Source: Clostridia bacterium (GTDB lineage Bacteria > Bacillota > Clostridia > TANB77 > CAG-508). Taken from it: 64,000 nucleotides of DNA. Positions 31,158-52,203 of this stretch are shown one piece after another. Position 1 is the stretch's first letter. Each line of letters starts with the position of its first letter. The notes beneath the pieces were generated by a model that ran no database searches, had not been told where the DNA came from, and saw only the letters and a list, made by a program, of their open reading frames with translations. Location: contig JAFRCC010000001.1 in the NCBI GenBank assembly GCA_017404545.1, positions 2,335-66,334 on the forward strand, read 5' to 3'. The position numbers and the translations under genes were made by a program.

Positions 31158-31179
31158 GACAAAATATACAATGTTAGCC

Positions 31180-31208
31180 TTGACAAACAAATTGTGTCAT
31201 AATATAAT
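31180..31208 (+). promoter_or_regulatory. consensus sigma-A promoter for the regulator-suf operon
   Basis: TTGACA (31180-31185), 17-nt spacer, TATAAT (31203-31208). Confidence 0.65.
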
Positions 31209-31225
31209 GTTAGCCGAAGCTAACA
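31208..31225. promoter_or_regulatory. palindromic operator candidate (DtxR/IdeR-like iron box)
   Basis: TGTTAGC-CGAA-GCTAACA abuts the -10 element. A half-site ATGTTAGCC is repeated at 31171-31179 next to the -35. Confidence 0.45.
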
Positions 31226-31238
31226 AAGGGAGATTATT

Positions 31239-31691
31239 ATGATATCAAAGTCTTTAGAGGAATATTTAAAAACAATGTATATACTAAAGCAACAAAATGG
31301 GAATATACGCGTCACAGATATTGCAAATAAGATGAATTGCACGAAGGCAAGCGTGAATAAAGCTATTAATAATTTAAAAGATAATAATTTAGTAAACTAT
31401 GAATCATATGGAAAAATTGAACTAACTACAGAAGGAGAAAATTTGTCAAAAAAAATACTTGAGGCATATGATATAGTTTACATTTTTTTGAGAGAGGTCT
31501 TAAATTTAAGCGATGACGATGCAAAGAGCGAGGCAGAAAGCATTAAGGGGGCAATACAAGATACAACAATAAACAAACTAGCCAAATATGTTCACAAGGA
31601 GCTAGGATTAAGTAGTTTGGATTGTGATTATGATATAAATAAAGAAAAATGTCGAAGTTGCGCTAGAAGAACTGCTTCAAAAAAACTTTAA
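31239..31691 (+). CDS. DtxR/MntR-family metal-dependent transcriptional regulator
   Basis: 150-aa ORF. LEEYLKTMYIL and the winged-helix region are typical of the DtxR family. It has a short Cys-containing tail. Confidence 0.85.
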   Translation: MISKSLEEYLKTMYILKQQNGNIRVTDIANKMNCTKASVNKAINNLKDNNLVNYESYGKIELTTEGENLSKKILEAYDIVYIFLREVLNLSDDDAKSEAESIKGAIQDTTINKLAKYVHKELGLSSLDCDYDINKEKCRSCARRTASKKL

Positions 31692-31711
31692 ATGTGGAGG
31701 AAGGATTTATA

Positions 31712-32449
31712 ATGAAAGAATTATTAGAAATAAAAAATTTACACGCGGGAGTAGAAGACAAGGAAATACTAAAGGGAGTAGATTTAGCAATAAAACCAGG
31801 AGAAATACACGTAATAATGGGACCTAATGGGTCTGGTAAAACTACTACTGCAAATGCAATACTAAATAATCCAGAATATACAAAAACAGAAGGAAGCATT
31901 ACTTTTAATGGTGAAGATATAACAAATGAATCAACAGATGAAATTGCAAGAAAAGGTGTATTTATGTCTTTCCAATTACCAGAAGAAATACCAGGGGTTT
32001 CTGTAACTAATTTCTTAAAATATGCTAAAAATAAAATTACAGGGAAGCCAGTTAAAATATTCGAGTTTAAAAAAGAGCTTCAAAAATATATGGAAGAGCT
32101 TAATATGAATCCTAAAAATATGGAAAGAAGCTTAAATGTTGGTTTCTCTGGTGGTGAGAAAAAGAAAAACGAAATATTGCAAATGCTAGTTTTAAACCCT
32201 AAACTTGCAATACTAGATGAAACAGATTCTGGTCTTGATGTTGATGCAATAAAAACAGTTTCAAAAGGTATTGAAATGTTCAAGAATGAAGAGAATGCTG
32301 TTTTAATAATTACGCATAATACAAAAATTTTACATAGTTTAAAAGTTGACTATGTTCATATATTTATCGATGGAAAAATTGTTAAAACTGGTAGCCAAGA
32401 ATTGGCAAAAGAAATTGAAGAGAATGGATATGGAAAATATAAAAAATAG
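31712..32449 (+). CDS. sufC: Fe-S cluster assembly ATPase SufC
   Basis: ORF 31694-32449. GGAGGAAGG precedes ATG 31712. Motifs: GPNGSGKTT, FSGGEKKKNEI, ILDETDSGLD. Confidence 0.95.
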   Translation: MKELLEIKNLHAGVEDKEILKGVDLAIKPGEIHVIMGPNGSGKTTTANAILNNPEYTKTEGSITFNGEDITNESTDEIARKGVFMSFQLPEEIPGVSVTNFLKYAKNKITGKPVKIFEFKKELQKYMEELNMNPKNMERSLNVGFSGGEKKKNEILQMLVLNPKLAILDETDSGLDVDAIKTVSKGIEMFKNEENAVLIITHNTKILHSLKVDYVHIFIDGKIVKTGSQELAKEIEENGYGKYKK

Positions 32450-32474
32450 CCGCTGGGATTGCTCCCCAGCAGCG
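32441..32474 (-). terminator. minus-strand intrinsic terminator of the antisense small gene
   Basis: On the minus strand, stem GCTGGG / CCCAGC (extendable to 9 bp) is followed by TATTTTTT. The T-tract overlaps the last codons of sufC. Confidence 0.65.
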
Positions 32475-32488
32475 ACCGAAGTATTAGC

Positions 32489-32686
32489 TTATTTTTTATT
32501 GTGCTCGAAAACACTGTCTATGATGTCTGAAGCTATAAACGGGGAAAACGGTACAATGAAAAGTACGATTGCCGCCCATACAGGTGATTCAATTGCCACA
32601 GCTACACAAACAAATATCCAGGCAAAAATAGCTAAGCTTGTGATTATTCGAGAAAGTACCCGAGTAACCGATTTAGAATACTTCAT
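32489..32686 (-). CDS. small hydrophobic protein (65 aa, two predicted TM helices) antisense within the suf operon
   Basis: GGAGG lies 8 nt before the ATG (minus strand). It has its own consensus promoter and terminator and is GC-richer than the surroundings. No family recognised. Confidence 0.6.
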   Translation of the reverse strand: MKYSKSVTRVLSRIITSLAIFAWIFVCVAVAIESPVWAAIVLFIVPFSPFIASDIIDSVFEHNKK

Positions 32687-32715
32687 AAATACACCTCCAA
32701 AAGTATTTGGAGAGA

Positions 32716-32744
32716 ATTATATAAAATATAAATACTATTGTCAA
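32716..32744 (-). promoter_or_regulatory. consensus sigma-A promoter on the minus strand
   Basis: The reverse complement reads TTGACA (32744-32739), 17-nt spacer, TATAAT (32721-32716). Confidence 0.55.
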
Positions 32745-32760
32745 GTGAGAGGAAATAGAA

Positions 32761-34161
32761 ATGGCTAAAACGCAATTAGAAGAAATTAATAGAAATATAT
32801 ACGATATAAAAAATAAAGATGAGTATGATTACAAAATAAAAAAGGGTCTTACAAGAGAAATTGTGGAAGAAATTTCTAATCAAAAAAATGACCCAGATTG
32901 GATGAGAGAAATAAGGTTAAAAGCATTAGAAACATACAACAAATTAGAAATGCCAACATGGGGGCCAGACCTATCAGAGCTAAATATGGACGAGATTGCA
33001 ACATATGTTAGACCTAAATCAAAATTAAATAGTTCGTGGGATGATGTTCCAGATGATATAAAGAATACATTTGATAAACTTGGAATTCCAGAAGCGGAAA
33101 AAACGTCACTAGCTGGTGTTGGTGCTCAATACGATTCAGAAGTTGTATATCATAGCATGAAAGATGAATTATTAAAGCAAGGTGTTATATACACAGATAT
33201 GGAAACTGCAGTAAAAGATTATCCAGATTTGGTAAAAGAGCATTTTATGAAATGTGTTCCAATATCAGATCATAAATTTGTTGCTCTTCACGCTGCTGTA
33301 TGGTCAGGTGGTTCATTTGTATACGTACCAAAGGGTGTTAAACTAGAAATGCCATTACAATCATATTTTAGGTTAAATTCTCCAGAATCTGGACAATTTG
33401 AACATACACTTATTATAGTTGATGAAGGCGCAAGCTTACATTTTATAGAGGGATGTAGTGCTCCAAAATATAACAAAGTTAATTTACACGCTGGTTGTGT
33501 TGAATTATATGTAAGAGATAATGCATATTTAAGATATTCTACAATAGAAAACTGGTCGAAAAATATGCTTAACCTAAATACTAAAAAAGCAATATGTGGA
33601 AAGAATGCTGAGGTTGATTGGGTATCGGGTTCATTTGGTTCAAAAATATCAATGTTATACCCAATGAGTATTCTGAATGGTGAAGGTGCCAAGACGGAAT
33701 TTACAGGAATATCGTTTGCTGGTGGTGGACAAAACCTAGACAATGGATTCAAAGCAATCCACAACGCACCAAATACATCGAGTGTTGTAAATGCAAAATC
33801 AATATCTAAAAATGGCGGAAAATGTACGTATAGATCACTAATTAGAATAAATGAAAATGCAACAGGGTCTAAATCATCAGTATCATGCGAAAGTTTAATG
33901 TTAGATGATTTTTCTATATCAGATACAGTGCCAACAAATGATATAAGAACAGACGAAGTAGAATTCTCACACGAAGCTAAAATAGGAAAAATTTCAGATA
34001 AAACCATATTCTATTTAATGAGTAGGGGCTTATCCGAGGAAGATGCAAAGGCAATGATAGTTAGAGGATTTGCATATCCAATATCAAAAGAGCTACCAGT
34101 AGAGTATGCTGTTGAGATGAACAATCTAATAAACCTAGAGCTAGAGGGAGCAATAGGTTAA
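32761..34161 (+). CDS. sufB: Fe-S cluster assembly protein SufB
   Basis: 466-aa ORF with conserved SufB blocks (HAAVWSGGSFVYVPKGV, FIEGCSAP, HEAKIGKIS). Confidence 0.97.
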   Translation: MAKTQLEEINRNIYDIKNKDEYDYKIKKGLTREIVEEISNQKNDPDWMREIRLKALETYNKLEMPTWGPDLSELNMDEIATYVRPKSKLNSSWDDVPDDIKNTFDKLGIPEAEKTSLAGVGAQYDSEVVYHSMKDELLKQGVIYTDMETAVKDYPDLVKEHFMKCVPISDHKFVALHAAVWSGGSFVYVPKGVKLEMPLQSYFRLNSPESGQFEHTLIIVDEGASLHFIEGCSAPKYNKVNLHAGCVELYVRDNAYLRYSTIENWSKNMLNLNTKKAICGKNAEVDWVSGSFGSKISMLYPMSILNGEGAKTEFTGISFAGGGQNLDNGFKAIHNAPNTSSVVNAKSISKNGGKCTYRSLIRINENATGSKSSVSCESLMLDDFSISDTVPTNDIRTDEVEFSHEAKIGKISDKTIFYLMSRGLSEEDAKAMIVRGFAYPISKELPVEYAVEMNNLINLELEGAIG

Positions 34162-34162
34162 A

Positions 34163-34189
34163 TTAATTTTGGGGACGGAGCAAATAATT
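34163..34189. repeat. copy of the GGGGACGGAGCAAATAATT motif (half element)
   Basis: TTAATTTTGGGGACGGAGCAAATAATT starts 2 nt after the sufB stop. The same 19-mer occurs at 48553-48571. Confidence 0.6.
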
Positions 34190-34250
34190 AAAACTTTTAG
34201 ATTATAAATTTTTTCGCTTCGAAATATGTTCTAGAATAGAAAGGAAAAAT

Positions 34251-35315
34251 ATGACGAATATAGTATTAAATGAAACACCAGTAAGAACATCAAGAAATTT
34301 TAATATTAATAATGTAAAGTTGGAAGATATAGAAATTCCTAAAAATATACAAGCGTTTAAAAATGTTAAGGTTTCAGAGTTAAGTTCAAAAATTGCATTA
34401 AATACAGATTTTAATAACTTTGAATTAAAATATGGGCTAAACGATTTTCTTACAGAGCAAGTAAACAATAATGCTAACTTTAAAGCAAATATTGTAATAG
34501 ATAGTAAAACGAATAAAGATGTTAAGATTGATTTTAAGTTTGATGAAGCTAATAAAGATTTAATAGATGCAATAAATATTGTTGCAAATGAAGATACGAA
34601 ATCCACAATAATAGTAAAATATGAATCAGACTGTAACGTGCAGGCGTATCACAACGGAATAATTAAAGCAGTAGCAAAGAGCAATTCAGTGCTTAATATA
34701 ATTGTAGTTAATTTTATGAATGAAGTTTCAAATAACTTTTTAAGCATTGAGAATTGTTTTGAAAACGATTCTAAAATTAATTATTATATAATTGATTTTG
34801 GAGGACAGAATAGCATAACGAATTATTATTCGAACATTAAAGGCAATAATGCTAATAGTAGATTAAATACTTTGTATATAGGATCTGATGAACAACTAAT
34901 AGATTTAAACTATATAGGTGAACTATATGGTGAAAAGTCTAATGTAAATATAGAAGTTCAAGGAGCTTTAAAAGATAAAGCAAGAAAGAATTTTAAAGGA
35001 ACAATAGATTTTAAAAAAGGTTGTAAGAAAGCAGTTGGAAATGAGAATGAGAATTGTATCTTGCTTTCAGATACAGCTAAATCACTTGCTCTTCCAATGT
35101 TACTATGCTCTGAAGAGGATGTGGAAGGAAACCATAGTACATCATCAGGAAAGGTAGCTGAGAAAGAATTATTCTATATTATGAGTAGAGGATTTGAATT
35201 GAAAGATGCGCTAAAACTATTAGTTAGAGCAAAGTTTAACAAGATTCTTGAAGAAATAAAAGACGAAGAATTAAGAAATGAAATACTAGAGCAAATTGAT
35301 AAAAGAATTGGCTAA
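34251..35315 (+). CDS. sufD: Fe-S cluster assembly protein SufD
   Basis: 354-aa ORF. Its C-terminal block LLSDTAKSLALPMLLCSEEDVEGNHSTSSGKV..LFYIMSRG matches the SufB/D fold, and it sits between sufB and sufS. Confidence 0.9.
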   Translation: MTNIVLNETPVRTSRNFNINNVKLEDIEIPKNIQAFKNVKVSELSSKIALNTDFNNFELKYGLNDFLTEQVNNNANFKANIVIDSKTNKDVKIDFKFDEANKDLIDAINIVANEDTKSTIIVKYESDCNVQAYHNGIIKAVAKSNSVLNIIVVNFMNEVSNNFLSIENCFENDSKINYYIIDFGGQNSITNYYSNIKGNNANSRLNTLYIGSDEQLIDLNYIGELYGEKSNVNIEVQGALKDKARKNFKGTIDFKKGCKKAVGNENENCILLSDTAKSLALPMLLCSEEDVEGNHSTSSGKVAEKELFYIMSRGFELKDALKLLVRAKFNKILEEIKDEELRNEILEQIDKRIG

Positions 35316-35332
35316 ATATAGGAGGATTAACT

Positions 35333-36550
35333 ATGAGTCCAGAAGAAATAAAAAAAGATTTTCCATTATTACAAAATAGAAAAGAAGTTTATTTAGATAG
35401 TGGAGCTACAACTCAAAAACCTATCCAGGTTATAGAGGCTGTAGATGAGTACTATAGAAAATATAATGCAAATCCACATAGAGGTGCATATTCTTTAAGC
35501 ATTGAAGCTACACAAGCTTACGAAGATACTAGAATCAAAATTGCAAAGTTTATAAATGCAAGATATAGTGAAGAGATTATATTCTCTAAAAATGCTACTG
35601 AAAGTTTGAATTTAGTCGCTTATTCGTACGGAATGGATAACTTAGAAGCTGGTGATGAAGTAGTTATATCTATAATGGAGCATCATGCTAACTTAGTTCC
35701 ATGGCAACATGTATCTAAAACAAAAGGTGCGACTTTAAAATATATGTATATGAATGATGAGTATGAGCTTACTGACGAAGAAATTGAATCTAAGATTACA
35801 GATAAAACTAAGGTTGTTGGTATTACTCATATATCAAATGTTTTAGGAACAATAAATAATGTTAAAAAAATAATTAATTATGCACATAAAAAAGGTGCTA
35901 TTGTTATATTAGATGCTTCACAGAGCATTCCACATACTAAAATAGATGTACAAGATTTGGATGCTGATTTTCTAGCTTTTTCTGGACATAAATTATTAGC
36001 ACCATTTGGAATTGGTGTGTTATATGGTAAAAGAGAAATTCTAAATAAGATGAATCCATTTTTAATGGGTGGAGATATGATAGAATATGTGTATGAACAA
36101 AATACAACTTTTGCACCACTACCAAATAAGTTTGAAGCGGGTACTCAAAATGTTGGTGGGGTAATTGGACTTGGAGCTGCAATAGATTATATTGAGAAAA
36201 TAGGATACGATACAATTCAAAAGATTGAAAATGAAGTTACTTCATATGCTATAGAAAAGATGTCAAAACTAGATTTTTTAGATATATATATAACACCAAA
36301 TAAAAAGAATCATTCTGCAGTAATTTCATTTAACATAAAAGGTGTACATCCGCATGATGTGGCTAGTATATTAGATGCTAATGGCGTTTGTGTTAGATCT
36401 GGAAATCACTGCGCGCAACCGCTACTTAGGTTTATGGGAATTGATTCAACATGTAGAGCAAGCTTCTATTTTTACAATACAAAAGAAGATGCAGATAAGC
36501 TTGTTGAGGCTCTTAAGAAAGCCTATGAAATGTTTAAAAAATATATGTAA
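35333..36550 (+). CDS. sufS: cysteine desulfurase SufS
   Basis: 405-aa ORF with the PLP lysine motif FSGHKLLAP and the active-site loop RSGNHCAQP. Confidence 0.95.
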   Translation: MSPEEIKKDFPLLQNRKEVYLDSGATTQKPIQVIEAVDEYYRKYNANPHRGAYSLSIEATQAYEDTRIKIAKFINARYSEEIIFSKNATESLNLVAYSYGMDNLEAGDEVVISIMEHHANLVPWQHVSKTKGATLKYMYMNDEYELTDEEIESKITDKTKVVGITHISNVLGTINNVKKIINYAHKKGAIVILDASQSIPHTKIDVQDLDADFLAFSGHKLLAPFGIGVLYGKREILNKMNPFLMGGDMIEYVYEQNTTFAPLPNKFEAGTQNVGGVIGLGAAIDYIEKIGYDTIQKIENEVTSYAIEKMSKLDFLDIYITPNKKNHSAVISFNIKGVHPHDVASILDANGVCVRSGNHCAQPLLRFMGIDSTCRASFYFYNTKEDADKLVEALKKAYEMFKKYM

Positions 36551-36576
36551 TTAATAAATTGATACAAGGAGTTAAA

Positions 36577-37032
36577 ATGGACGAGTTAAACGATTTATAT
36601 ACTGATTTAATTATGGAGCATAGTATGAATTCTTGTAATAAAAGAGAGCTTGAATGCTGTGATTATTGCAAAATGGGACATAATCCAAATTGTGGTGATG
36701 AAATTAAATTAGAGCTAAAAATGGATGGAGATATAATAGATGATTTAGCATTTTCTGGACATGGATGTGCAATTTCTCAAGCCTCAACATCTATAATGAT
36801 TGATACATTGAGAGGAAAAAATATACATGAAGCAAGGAAAATAATTGAAACATTTATTGGAATGATAAAAAGAGAAATTACAGACGAAGCGGAACTTAAA
36901 AAATTAGAAGATGCAATTGCGTTTAGAAATGTATCACATATGCCAGCTAGAGTTAAATGCGCACTTCTTGCATGGCATACAATAGAAGATATGCTTAATG
37001 AAAGAATGGAAGGAAATTCAGATGGAAAATAA
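36577..37032 (+). CDS. sufU: SUF system Fe-S scaffold SufU (IscU/NifU-like)
   Basis: ORF 36559-37032. AAGGAG precedes ATG 36577. Motifs: NPNCGDEI, GHGCAISQAS, RVKCALLAW. Confidence 0.9.
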   Translation: MDELNDLYTDLIMEHSMNSCNKRELECCDYCKMGHNPNCGDEIKLELKMDGDIIDDLAFSGHGCAISQASTSIMIDTLRGKNIHEARKIIETFIGMIKREITDEAELKKLEDAIAFRNVSHMPARVKCALLAWHTIEDMLNERMEGNSDGK

Positions 37033-38074
37033 AAGAGTATTATTAGGTATGAGTGGGGGTGTAGATAGCTCTGTATCGGCCTTATTATTAAAGCAAGCCG
37101 GATACGAGGTAATAGGTGCAACGATGGAACTTTTTGTAGGAAGTAGTTGTTGCAATGTTAATACATATTTAGACGCAAAAAATGTATGCAATTCTATAGG
37201 AATACCACATTTTACATATGATTACAAAAATCAATTTAAAGAATATGTAATAGATGATTTTATAAATTGTTATAAAAATTGCAAAACACCAAATCCTTGT
37301 ATAGAATGCAATAAATATATGAAATTTGGTTTAATGTACGAAAAGGCAAAGGAGCTCGGTTGTAATTACATTGCGACGGGACACTATGCTAAAACAGAAT
37401 ATAGCGAAAAGTATGGTAGATGGGTTCTAAAAAAATCAAATGCTGGAAGAAAAGACCAAAGCTATGTATTATGGAATATGCCAAAAGAGCTTGTAGAACA
37501 TGTACTATTTCCACTTGCTGAATTTGAAGAAAAAGAGCAGATAAGGGCAATTGCAAGAGCTAATAATCTAAAAGTAGCAAACAAACCTGATAGTGAGGAT
37601 ATTTGTTTTGTTCCAGATGGTAACTATAAAAAATTCTTAGAAAAAAATTCTGATATTAAGCCAAAGCAAGGAAATATTGTTAATTTAAAAGGCGATGTTT
37701 TGGGTAAGCACACAGGATTATATAACTACACAATTGGTCAAAGAAAAGGTCTTGGAATTTCATACAAGGTACCCCTTTTTGTTGTTGGTTTCAACCATGA
37801 AAAAAATGAAGTAATAGTAGGTGAGGAAAGTGAATTATATACATTAGAAGCATACGTAGACGACGTAAATTTACTATTATTTGATGAAATAAAAGAAGAA
37901 ATTGAGGTCAATGTAAAAACAAGATATTCAGCAAAAGTTGCAAATGCAACAATCGTTCAAGAAAATGATAAAATAAAAATTAAATTCAAAGAGCCACAAA
38001 GGGCTGTTACACCTGGACAATCAGCAGTATTTTATTTGGATGACATAGTAGTAGGCGGAGGAAAGTTGATATAA
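37022..38074 (+). CDS. mnmA: tRNA-specific 2-thiouridylase MnmA
   Basis: ORF 36998-38074. The likely start ATG 37022 overlaps the sufU end by 11 nt. Motifs: PP-loop GMSGGVDSS, NPCIECN, ATGHYA. Confidence 0.95.
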   Translation: MENKRVLLGMSGGVDSSVSALLLKQAGYEVIGATMELFVGSSCCNVNTYLDAKNVCNSIGIPHFTYDYKNQFKEYVIDDFINCYKNCKTPNPCIECNKYMKFGLMYEKAKELGCNYIATGHYAKTEYSEKYGRWVLKKSNAGRKDQSYVLWNMPKELVEHVLFPLAEFEEKEQIRAIARANNLKVANKPDSEDICFVPDGNYKKFLEKNSDIKPKQGNIVNLKGDVLGKHTGLYNYTIGQRKGLGISYKVPLFVVGFNHEKNEVIVGEESELYTLEAYVDDVNLLLFDEIKEEIEVNVKTRYSAKVANATIVQENDKIKIKFKEPQRAVTPGQSAVFYLDDIVVGGGKLI

Positions 38075-38096
38075 GCTATATAGCTTAAAAAAGAGC

Positions 38097-38307
38097 AAAA
38101 AAATGAACTCTAACAAACTTTTCTGACAAAGAATGTTAGAGTTCTAAATAACCTCTTCCATTAAAATCCTCCTTTTCTTATAGATTACTATTACTCAATT
38201 ACAACTAAATAAACTAAAATGGATTTTTCTGAAATCCCAAAAAATTGTAATGGAATAGTTACAGAAGAGACAGCCCTGAGAGTATACATCTATACTCGAT
38301 CTAGCTT
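38097..38307 (-). ncRNA. candidate small RNA (about 200 nt) with a 5-codon micro-ORF, unassigned family
   Basis: It is bounded by a consensus minus-strand promoter (38314-38342) and a terminator (38105-38144). It has internal hairpins. The only SD-preceded ORF is MEEVI (38144-38161). Confidence 0.4.
38105..38144 (-). terminator. intrinsic terminator (minus strand)
   Basis: 11-bp stem GAACTCTAACA / TGTTAGAGTTC followed on the minus strand by T7. Confidence 0.7.
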
Positions 38308-38313
38308 AAATAT

Positions 38314-38342
38314 ATTATACTACTTAGTTAACATAATGTCAA
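38314..38342 (-). promoter_or_regulatory. consensus sigma-A promoter on the minus strand
   Basis: The reverse complement reads TTGACA (38342-38337), 17-nt spacer, TATAAT (38319-38314). Confidence 0.55.
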
Positions 38343-45811: not shown

Positions 45812-46075
45812 GTGAGTAAATTTAAGTTTATTTTTTTATTAATAGGTTTTATTATTTTAATTCAGTGCGTAGTACATACCAGTAGCATTGAAAAACCATA
45901 TGTGAGCTCTATTTTTGGACAAACAGATAATGTATTAGATGTGAAAGCAGATAAAAATGTATATATAAAAAACCTTTATTCCGGTTCAATAAATATAATT
46001 GAAAAATATTTAACGATCTATATGATTTTATTTATTTTTAGTTATTATATAAGAAGCACGTGTATCAGAATATAA
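45812..46075 (+). CDS. hypothetical small membrane protein
   Basis: 87-aa ORF with a GTG start after GAGGTG. It has hydrophobic N- and C-termini. No family recognised. Confidence 0.4.
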   Translation: MSKFKFIFLLIGFIILIQCVVHTSSIEKPYVSSIFGQTDNVLDVKADKNVYIKNLYSGSINIIEKYLTIYMILFIFSYYIRSTCIRI

Positions 46076-52026: not shown

Positions 52027-52203
52027 ATGATGCTATCAGGAATTATTGCTATAATAGTACAAATTGCCATTATATACTTTTTACTAAAAGTTGCATTTAA
52101 GATTACAAAATTTTTAATTAAATTGGCATTTTATATTTTAGCATTAGCTATAGCGTTGAATGTACTACGCATTCTTGTAGCTACAATTTTGATTTTATTG
52201 TAG
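52027..52203 (+). CDS. small hydrophobic peptide (58 aa, two TM helices)
   Basis: ORF 52021-52203. GGGAG lies 5 nt before ATG 52027. The product is almost entirely Ile/Leu/Ala/Lys and has its own terminator. Confidence 0.55.
   Translation: MMLSGIIAIIVQIAIIYFLLKVAFKITKFLIKLAFYILALAIALNVLRILVATILILL

Follow-up and report, generated by a model that had tools for sequence, protein, structure and literature searches.

Predicted antisense genes for small membrane peptides at two junctions of the suf operon in gut Clostridia

The spacer between sufC and sufB in a 64,000-nucleotide (nt) stretch from an uncultured gut Clostridia bacterium of low GC content (30%; assembly GCA_017404545.1, contig JAFRCC010000001.1, positions 2,335 to 66,334; hereafter the window) holds, as judged from its signals, a self-contained gene on the strand opposite to the operon, the predicted product of which is a small two-helix membrane peptide of 65 amino acids (aa). 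The gene belongs to a cassette that one close strain lacks, and comparison of related species indicates that the sufC-sufB and sufB-sufD junctions are a clade-wide hotspot for predicted antisense small membrane-protein genes of many unrelated families. This hypervariable antisense-cassette hotspot in a clade of gut Clostridia is a new result; searching of the full-text literature returned no description of such an arrangement. Our tentative reading, which we favor with less than even confidence, is that the window carries an accessory peptide gene resembling type I toxin genes and facing suf transcription head-on, a reading in which we infer both the toxicity and the coupling to suf.

At 311 nt, the sufC-sufB gap is unusually long, as an earlier preliminary description of the sequence had claimed: the remaining junctions of the cluster measure 2, 89, 17, and 8 nt, and its last two genes overlap by 35 nt. 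That description had also placed a complete minus-strand unit in the gap, and promoter, Shine-Dalgarno (SD) sequence, open reading frame (ORF), and terminator are all present (Table 1). The promoter scores as a perfect consensus, and perfect TTGACA-17-TATAAT sites are rare (three in the window versus 0.05 expected by chance); one of the three drives the suf operon and another the peptide gene, with the -35 box of the latter only 2 nt from the sufB SD. The GGAGG reported ahead of the start codon is likewise there, at a spacing of 7 nt rather than the 8 nt first given. The terminator, said to be specific to the minus strand and to share its T-tract with the end of sufC, was confirmed on both points: a hairpin of 10 pairs (7 of them G-C; fold about -18 kcal/mol) runs into TATTTTTTAT, which is the reverse complement of the last sufC codons AAA TAT AAA AAA TAG, and only on the minus strand does a T-tract follow the hairpin. 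A plus-strand ORF of 140 aa with a TTG start (32346-32768), the mirror frame of the minus-strand ORF, overlaps sufC out of frame.

Could the ORF be a non-functional product of chance in inserted or foreign DNA that happens to match a promoter and a terminator? An ORF of at least 65 codons appeared in 64 of 2000 shuffles of the gap (3.2%), the peptide is an orphan not recorded as a called gene, and AT-rich DNA is full of promoter-like sites (at the 9/12 level, 16 were found in the window versus 18 expected). Length alone is thus modestly unlikely, and its combination with promoter, SD, and terminator is beyond chance: the 12/12 promoter, a rare event, is correctly placed for both GGAGG-7-ATG and the strand-specific terminator, relatives repeat this architecture in ~30 independent cassettes, and the unit is maintained nearly unchanged in four independent studies. 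We consider a chance origin very unlikely.

The two hydrophobic helices ascribed to the ORF are supported by hydrophobic peaks at residues 14-30 and 36-52 and by an AlphaFold model from the single sequence, which is a helical hairpin (residues 5-31 and 35-64, pLDDT 73). The N-terminus is basic (K2, K5, R9, and R13) and the tail reads SDIIDSVFEHNKK. A signal peptide spanning residues 1-31 (AVA/IE) was considered and rejected, as the 19-residue hydrophobic core better fits a transmembrane (TM) helix. No homologue was found by a word-seeded search of 5.8 billion clustered proteins, by phmmer against 1.84 billion representative proteins read exhaustively (0 matches), in JGI metagenome contigs, or by tblastn in plasmids and phages. 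An exact-sequence look-up showed that the ORF is absent as a called gene from the public protein collection, the annotation pipeline of which therefore missed it. Neither a second copy of the insert nor similarity to other gap ORFs was detected by blastn and tblastn in the window and in the 80 related suf loci described below (z <2.6).

Base composition sets the insert apart from its host. The preliminary description had noted a GC-richer block, and GC is indeed 0.40-0.45 at 32450-32650 versus 0.23-0.31 in the flanks. The third-position GC content (GC3) of the ORF is 0.33 versus 0.17-0.21 in eight host genes, and its codon-usage score is -1.32 versus -0.74 to -0.83 in host genes; such foreign values point to horizontal acquisition of the cassette from a GC-richer source. 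GC-rich islands in AT-rich genomes are often structured RNAs, and the block could instead be a plus-strand cis-regulatory element of the suf mRNA such as a riboswitch, processing site, or stabilizer, with which the plus-strand fold (z-score -2.5) agrees. However, the minus strand folds about as well (z-score -2.2), relatives have no homologous sequence, and a close strain is without the block. Rfam gave no match at the gathering threshold over the whole window, and a targeted search returned only E values of 0.79 and 0.98. With no Rfam match and with both strands folding alike, we rejected a structured RNA as highly improbable.

Sequencing runs from several studies show that the cassette is real DNA and not an assembly artefact, and that it comes and goes between strains. 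Three runs of one study (X1-X3) contain the window sequence exactly, and runs from three further studies (X4, 2013; X5, goat gut, 2025; and X7) contain a near-identical insert with a shared 1-nt deletion at 32476, in the 3' untranslated region (UTR), plus one or two substitutions. In run X6, a 361-nt contig with flanks 96-98% identical to the window joins position 32436 to 32719 and skips 282 nt, and the 8 letters common to both sides of this junction form the direct repeat ATATAAAA. The indel takes the whole ORF, the SD, and the terminator, while the -35 box lies outside it and the -10 box straddles its right edge. The cassette is thus accessory, a presence/absence polymorphism at the strain level. 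A miniature inverted-repeat transposable element or insertion sequence was rejected: the element is single copy, and inspection of the insert ends revealed no terminal inverted repeats. The 8-nt direct repeats fit a microhomology deletion equally well as a target-site duplication.

To place the cassette in its clade, we compared the suf loci of 80 related species. Across them the sufC-sufB gap varies between 0 and 2509 nt (median, 77 nt) and is at least 200 nt long in 24 species (the mis-parsed locus L036 set aside), and ~22 of the 80 species have in it a minus-strand hydrophobic ORF of 37-122 aa. The placement of these ORFs is similar from species to species, with the ATG 79-172 nt from the sufB ATG (79-109 nt in 19 species; 74 nt in the window) and, in gaps with a single cassette, the stop codon 24-118 nt past that of sufC (39 nt in the window). 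Five species (L030, L035, L043, L048, and L068) have tandem arrays of two or three minus-strand genes in gaps of 527-1072 nt. At sufB-sufD, 16 of 74 loci have a gap of at least 200 nt and 10 carry minus-strand hydrophobic ORFs of 36-78 aa; no such ORF was found at the dtxR-sufC junction of the same loci, where the median gap is 11 nt and only 2 gaps are at least 200 nt long. Most cassettes possess an SD, a promoter that matches at 9-12 of 12 positions and frequently has an extended -10 box (TGn), and a terminator whose hairpin folds at -12 to -29 kcal/mol; where a cassette abuts sufC, the T-tract of its terminator coincides with the sufC stop region. In the terminators inspected (those of the window and of the family typified by species L004), the plus strand has no T-tract and should let sense transcription continue past the hairpin.

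On the SufB tree the cassettes are patchy, and sister taxa differ in carriage: the sufC-sufB gap is 311 nt in the window versus 51 nt in L001, 273 nt in L072 versus 53 nt in L073, and 322 nt in L025 versus 75 nt in L028. The insertion for which relatives were of interest in the preliminary description therefore has analogues in ~22 of 80 species, but the window's own spacer and ORF are not common to them. Loss of the ORF in relatives sharing the same spacer, which would have spoken against the gene, is inapplicable because relatives have either different cassettes or none.

These junctions also hold other features. Three species (L025, L051, and L081) have a 60-62-aa two-TM family (MSKKRCWQ.LAAIVTIIG...) antisense in the sufB-sufD gap, and because the same genomes carry a different cassette at sufC-sufB, one operon can contain two unrelated antisense peptide genes. 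In L003, L005, L008, L011, L012, and L065 (also in L059, L061, L064, and L078), sufC-sufB gaps of 75-153 nt have long GC-rich palindromes and no ORF. These palindromes (for example, GTTGTCAAAAGGGACGCCC...GGGCGTCCCTTTTGACAAC) resemble the intercistronic hairpins of repetitive extragenic palindromes, also with TTGACA motifs, so the sufC-sufB junction collects a second kind of small insert. The 2509-nt gap of L077 (2570-5080) contains a plus-strand gene for an 826-aa Lys/Glu-rich repetitive protein with repeats resembling helix-turn-helix motifs.

The orientation of the peptide ORFs is nearly invariant. We counted ORFs of 35-95 aa with an ATG start, an SD, and a TM segment, the background for judging specificity to suf being the 64-kb window plus, at each locus, ~3 kb of flanking sequence. 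Seventeen lie in ~15 kb of sufC-sufB gaps, all on the minus strand, and 10 downstream of sufB, also on the minus strand, as compared to a single one in ~170 kb of the antisense strand of sufC and sufB; the stretches of 2-3 kb upstream of the loci gave three on the plus strand and three on the minus strand. In intergenic regions whose flanking genes point the same way, the count was 25 minus to 1 plus. Within the window, the suf cassette is the sole antisense ORF of its kind among 25 gaps. Two hydrophobic ORFs with an SD do lie between co-directional genes on the plus strand, one at 52027-52203 (58 aa, two TM segments) and one at 45812-46075 (87 aa, GTG start); both may encode small membrane proteins that annotation has missed and that have nothing to do with the suf cassettes.

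The 33 well-formed cassettes from both junctions fall into ~25 sequence families (z >=6), and the window ORF resembles no relative's cassette ORF (z <2.6). The best-sampled family comprises L004, L007, L009, and L051, with L010 as a distant member at 33% identity. Its ORF indels are all multiples of 3, those in the terminator region being mostly of 1-2 nt; the ratio of nonsynonymous to synonymous substitution rates (dN/dS) is 0.65-0.77 for L007 versus the other members at a dS of ~0.3, and ~1 among the three closest members, which are only 8-10 substitutions apart. Two further families have a dN/dS of 0.26-0.32. Public gene callers call members of the L004 family (P0001-P0006), always antisense between sufC and sufB. 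The signatures of these sequences indicate that the ORFs of relatives are coding.

Turnover of the cassettes has left traces at their edges. Copies of the repeat TATACCAC border the L072/L073 indel, one within the 3' end of sufC and the other within the -10 box, which is exactly the arrangement of ATATAAAA in the window. Remnants of the antisense -35 box persist in the short gaps of L002, L041, and L073. Cassette loss by deletion between short direct repeats is well supported by these comparisons of sequence. One family occurs at both junctions, in L017 between sufC and sufB and in L035 between sufB and sufD (score 106, z = 14, 0 of 1000 shuffles), so cassettes move, or have moved, between the two junctions. 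Neither inverted repeats nor further copies, the signature of transposition, turned up in the window or the 80 loci, and no integrase or tRNA is involved; we infer that exchange may occur by recombination through the highly conserved suf flanks. An integron-like array, in which one resident promoter serves promoterless cassettes, was rejected because each tandem cassette has its own promoter.

How the peptide gene would relate to suf transcription follows from the layout of the two units. Two consensus promoters face each other, at 31180 on the plus strand and at 32744 on the minus strand, and the minus-strand unit spans 32709-32439. The promoter at 31180 is the only strong one upstream of sufB on the plus strand, and 32450-32760 contains no plus-strand promoter of 9/12 or better and no plus-strand terminator; transcripts that reach sufB from 31180 should therefore be antisense to the whole peptide mRNA. 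The claim of the preliminary description that suf read-through is antisense to this mRNA thus holds by geometry and predicted signals only, and on the same grounds the two units overlap on opposite strands in the convergent, excludon-like manner. A weak plus-strand promoter-like site inside the sufC 3' end (TTTACA-16-TATGTT, 9/12, 32329-32356) would start an RNA that runs into the cassette. There is no other candidate for a dedicated antisense RNA, and this one is unconvincing. For the L004-type cassette, a few contigs of 151-230 nt from unstranded RNA libraries span the borders of the cassette with sufC and with sufB. DNA carry-over is possible in these libraries, and the contigs are compatible with sense read-through without being proof of it.

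In the mechanism we propose, the polycistronic suf transcript and the peptide mRNA would be made convergently and be fully complementary over ~270 nt, and collision of RNA polymerases together with degradation of the RNA duplex would lead to reciprocal expression. High suf transcription would silence the peptide and shut-down of suf would release it. The peptide would be a membrane-active protein resembling type I toxins, and the operon transcript would take the role of a dedicated antitoxin small RNA (sRNA). Cassettes would persist and spread between highly conserved, presumably essential genes because such flanks favor homologous recombination and guarantee a supply of antisense RNA; persistence and spread are probably owed to this location. 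A bolder version, in which the cassettes are a class, not described before, of type I-like addiction or stress modules that are devoid of an antitoxin gene, use the suf transcript as antitoxin, spread by recombination through suf flanks, and act as a dead-man switch on Fe-S assembly, we regard as unlikely.

Several observations weigh against a toxin-like gene held in check by suf. The cassette was found in no RNA run; the metatranscriptome runs X11 and X13 contain relatives, but only ones that lack it. The peptide has no significant match to a toxin, holin, or defence family in Pfam, NCBIfam, PADLOC, or PHROGs; at 65 aa and with two TM helices, it also differs from the usual type I toxin of <60 aa with one TM helix. 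A dedicated antitoxin sRNA gene is missing, and the mRNA of a housekeeping operon is the sole antisense RNA available. The suf operon is thought to be essential in Firmicutes, and a head-on consensus promoter within a presumably essential operon would be costly if it truly blocked suf. The dN/dS of the best-sampled family reflects weak sequence constraint, specificity for suf was gauged within the window and the locus flanks, and the T-rich minus strand itself favors long hydrophobic ORFs; on this last point, the antisense-of-coding control indicates that composition alone does not yield these units. Nor is a lock of the kind known from type I toxin mRNAs supported for the predicted mRNA. In its minimum free energy fold, GAAGUAUU beside the AUG pairs with AAUACUUC in the 3' UTR, but such 5'-3' pairing is not significant when compared to shuffles (p = 0.10 for the window, p = 0.06 for 26 cassettes), and pairing of the SD is not above that of shuffled controls (p = 0.83 for 26 cassettes). 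The 7-bp palindrome described over the SD is present, but transcription probably begins at its 5' arm or downstream of that arm, so the RNA would probably include only part of it and could form only ~5 bp. Neither the palindrome nor the 8-bp 5'-3' pairing is taken here as evidence of a type I-like lock.

The peptide may instead be a benign accessory small membrane protein, such as a modulator of a complex or an immunity-type peptide, with neither toxin activity nor a link to suf, the junction being simply an exchangeable, tolerant spacer. Two-TM hairpins of 50-80 aa are common among non-toxic small membrane proteins, and the missing toxin family match, the full set of expression signals with no visible repression device, the patchy distribution, and the occurrence of one family at two junctions all agree with this possibility. 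On the other hand, ~25 families in one slot and weak purifying selection argue against a specific binding partner, and a benign role does not account for why the orientation is so strictly antisense (25:1) or why only two suf junctions are occupied. We consider such a role possible, if on the unlikely side.

Alternatively, the functional part could be the antisense promoter, which would regulate suf through head-on transcription or RNase III cleavage, uncoupling sufC from sufBDSU or tuning their ratio, with the ORF incidental or RNA-stabilizing. Antisense promoters are documented to modulate the isc-suf operon of Rhodobacter (PMC6956336). In L004 versus L010, the promoter beside the sufB SD, the 5' UTR, the SD, and the terminator are all better conserved than the ORF, and the -35 box survives in the cassette-less alleles of X6, L002, L041, and L073. 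Promoter conservation may, however, partly reflect the overlapping start region for sufB translation; ORFs are kept open, with in-frame indels, strong SDs, and a dN/dS <1 in several families, and most species of the clade have no cassette at all. A purely regulatory promoter is thus quite unlikely in our estimation.

Returning to the toxin-like peptide gene, its closest parallels are the type I toxin-antitoxin (TA) systems of Firmicutes, such as CD2517.1-RCd8 of C. difficile, TxpA/RatA and BsrG/SR4 of B. subtilis, and Fst/RNAII of E. faecalis. Type I toxins, those of Clostridia among them, are small proteins with a TM domain and a charged C-terminus, their RNAs are convergent and overlapping, and homology does not extend across families (PMC6563280). 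The peptides of the cassettes likewise have one or two TM helices and often a lysine-rich tail, and that of the window is a small hydrophobic TM protein with charged ends, though slightly long and two-helix. As in the Firmicutes systems, there is an own strong promoter and a convergent RNA (here predicted) with long perfect complementarity, and the genes show no similarity across families, occur in tandem copies, are patchily distributed among strains, and are mostly unannotated (PMC6563280). Analogous genes in ~22 of 80 species, their ~25 families, the tandem arrays, and a close strain without the cassette form a pattern typical of type I toxin loci. Unlike type I loci, the cassette sits inside a core operon and not in a prophage, on a plasmid, or next to a CRISPR array, and the 65-aa peptide has no significant match to any described toxin family (Fst/Ldr, TxpA/BsrG, Hok, Ibs, TisB, and others). 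The type I-like arrangement first proposed is therefore only partly supported: antisense gene, peptide type, and hypervariable, patchy occurrence stand, whereas a dedicated antitoxin and a known toxin family were not found and an mRNA lock is not supported. The cassette is best described as working like a type I TA system, and not as a member of the family.

As regards regulation, the closest parallels are excludon-type antisense pairs and the isc-suf antisense promoters of Rhodobacter (PMC6956336). As in the excludons of Listeria, an mRNA would double as the antisense RNA of an opposite neighbor gene; excludons, however, bring divergent genes or operons together by way of long extensions at the 5' or 3' end, whereas the small gene of the window is complete and lies within an intercistronic spacer. 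As in Rhodobacter, the antisense promoter lies inside an Fe-S assembly operon, but the promoters there are not reported to drive a peptide gene. In contrast to both, the element described here is accessory and hypervariable instead of a fixed regulatory feature. The junctions also resemble genomic islets or hotspots in having a fixed slot between conserved genes, lineage-specific cargo, empty sites in sister taxa, and foreign base composition. They differ in that the slot is an intercistronic junction within an operon, in that the cargo is a mini-gene of ~280 nt that is always antisense, and in the lack of an integrase, tRNA, or inverted repeats.

Table 1. Positions in the window of the antisense peptide gene, its flanking repeats, and the neighboring suf features
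Feature	Positions	Strand	Details or basis
Peptide-gene promoter TTGACA-17-TATAAT	32716-32744	-	motif score 12/12; -35 box 32744-32739, -10 box 32721-32716
Palindrome CTCCAAA-n4-TTTGGAG over the SD	32695-32712	-	sequence
Peptide-gene SD GGAGG	32694-32698	-	7 nt to ATG at 32686
65-aa ORF	32489-32686, stop codon included	-	ORF list, translation
Intrinsic terminator	32439-32473	-	fold; hairpin 32473-32449, then TATTTTTTAT 32448-32439
Left direct repeat copy ATATAAAA	32437-32444		X6 junction
Right direct repeat copy ATATAAAA	32719-32726		X6 junction
Operon promoter TTGACA-17-TATAAT (dtxR-like-sufCBDSU-mnmA)	31180-31208	+	motif score 12/12
DtxR-family repressor gene	31239-31691	+	first gene of cluster
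sufC, ABC ATPase	31694-32449	+	ABC_tran, E 3e-27
sufB SD GAGAGGA	32747-32753	+	sequence
sufB	32761-34161	+	SUFBD_core, E 3e-82

The operon around the spacer is a plus-strand cluster (31239-38074) of a DtxR-family repressor gene, sufC, sufB, and sufD-like, sufS-like, sufU-like, and mnmA-like genes, the last three named from gene order and a reading of their translations. SufC of the window is 82-91% identical to SufC of metagenome-assembled genomes from sheep, deer, goat, rabbit, and human guts. Directly after the -10 box of the operon promoter is a palindrome, GTTAGCcgaaGCTAAC (31209-31224), and a GTTAGCC half-site lies just upstream of the -35 box (region 31173-31224). The product of the first gene of the cluster, the DtxR-like repressor, probably has its operator in this palindrome; if so, this would imply metal-dependent autoregulation of suf, with peptide output responding via suf. 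The third perfect TTGACA-17-TATAAT site of the window (38342-38314, minus strand) heads a unit of ~230 nt (38095-38342) between mnmA-like and cysS-like genes. This unit has a leader of ~130 nt, a strong SD (AAGGAGG), and a mini-ORF of 5 codons (MEEVI), and its hairpin (GAACTCTAACA..TGTTAGAGTTC) leads into T7. The unit ends ~20 nt before the mnmA stop codon, matches nothing in Rfam, and may serve as an sRNA or leader-peptide unit converging on the 3' end of the suf operon.

If the peptide is toxic and restrained by suf mRNA, the transcript of a housekeeping operon can take the part of a type I antitoxin. Selfish or stress-responsive mini-genes would in that case have a habitat in the intercistronic junctions of core operons, and current TA-finding tools, which seek a toxin together with an sRNA, would miss such units. 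About one-third of the 80 related species carry at least one of ~25 unrelated antisense membrane peptides at the two suf junctions. Whatever the function of these peptides, this pattern offers a natural system in which to study how small membrane proteins of uncultured gut bacteria arise, turn over, and are exchanged.

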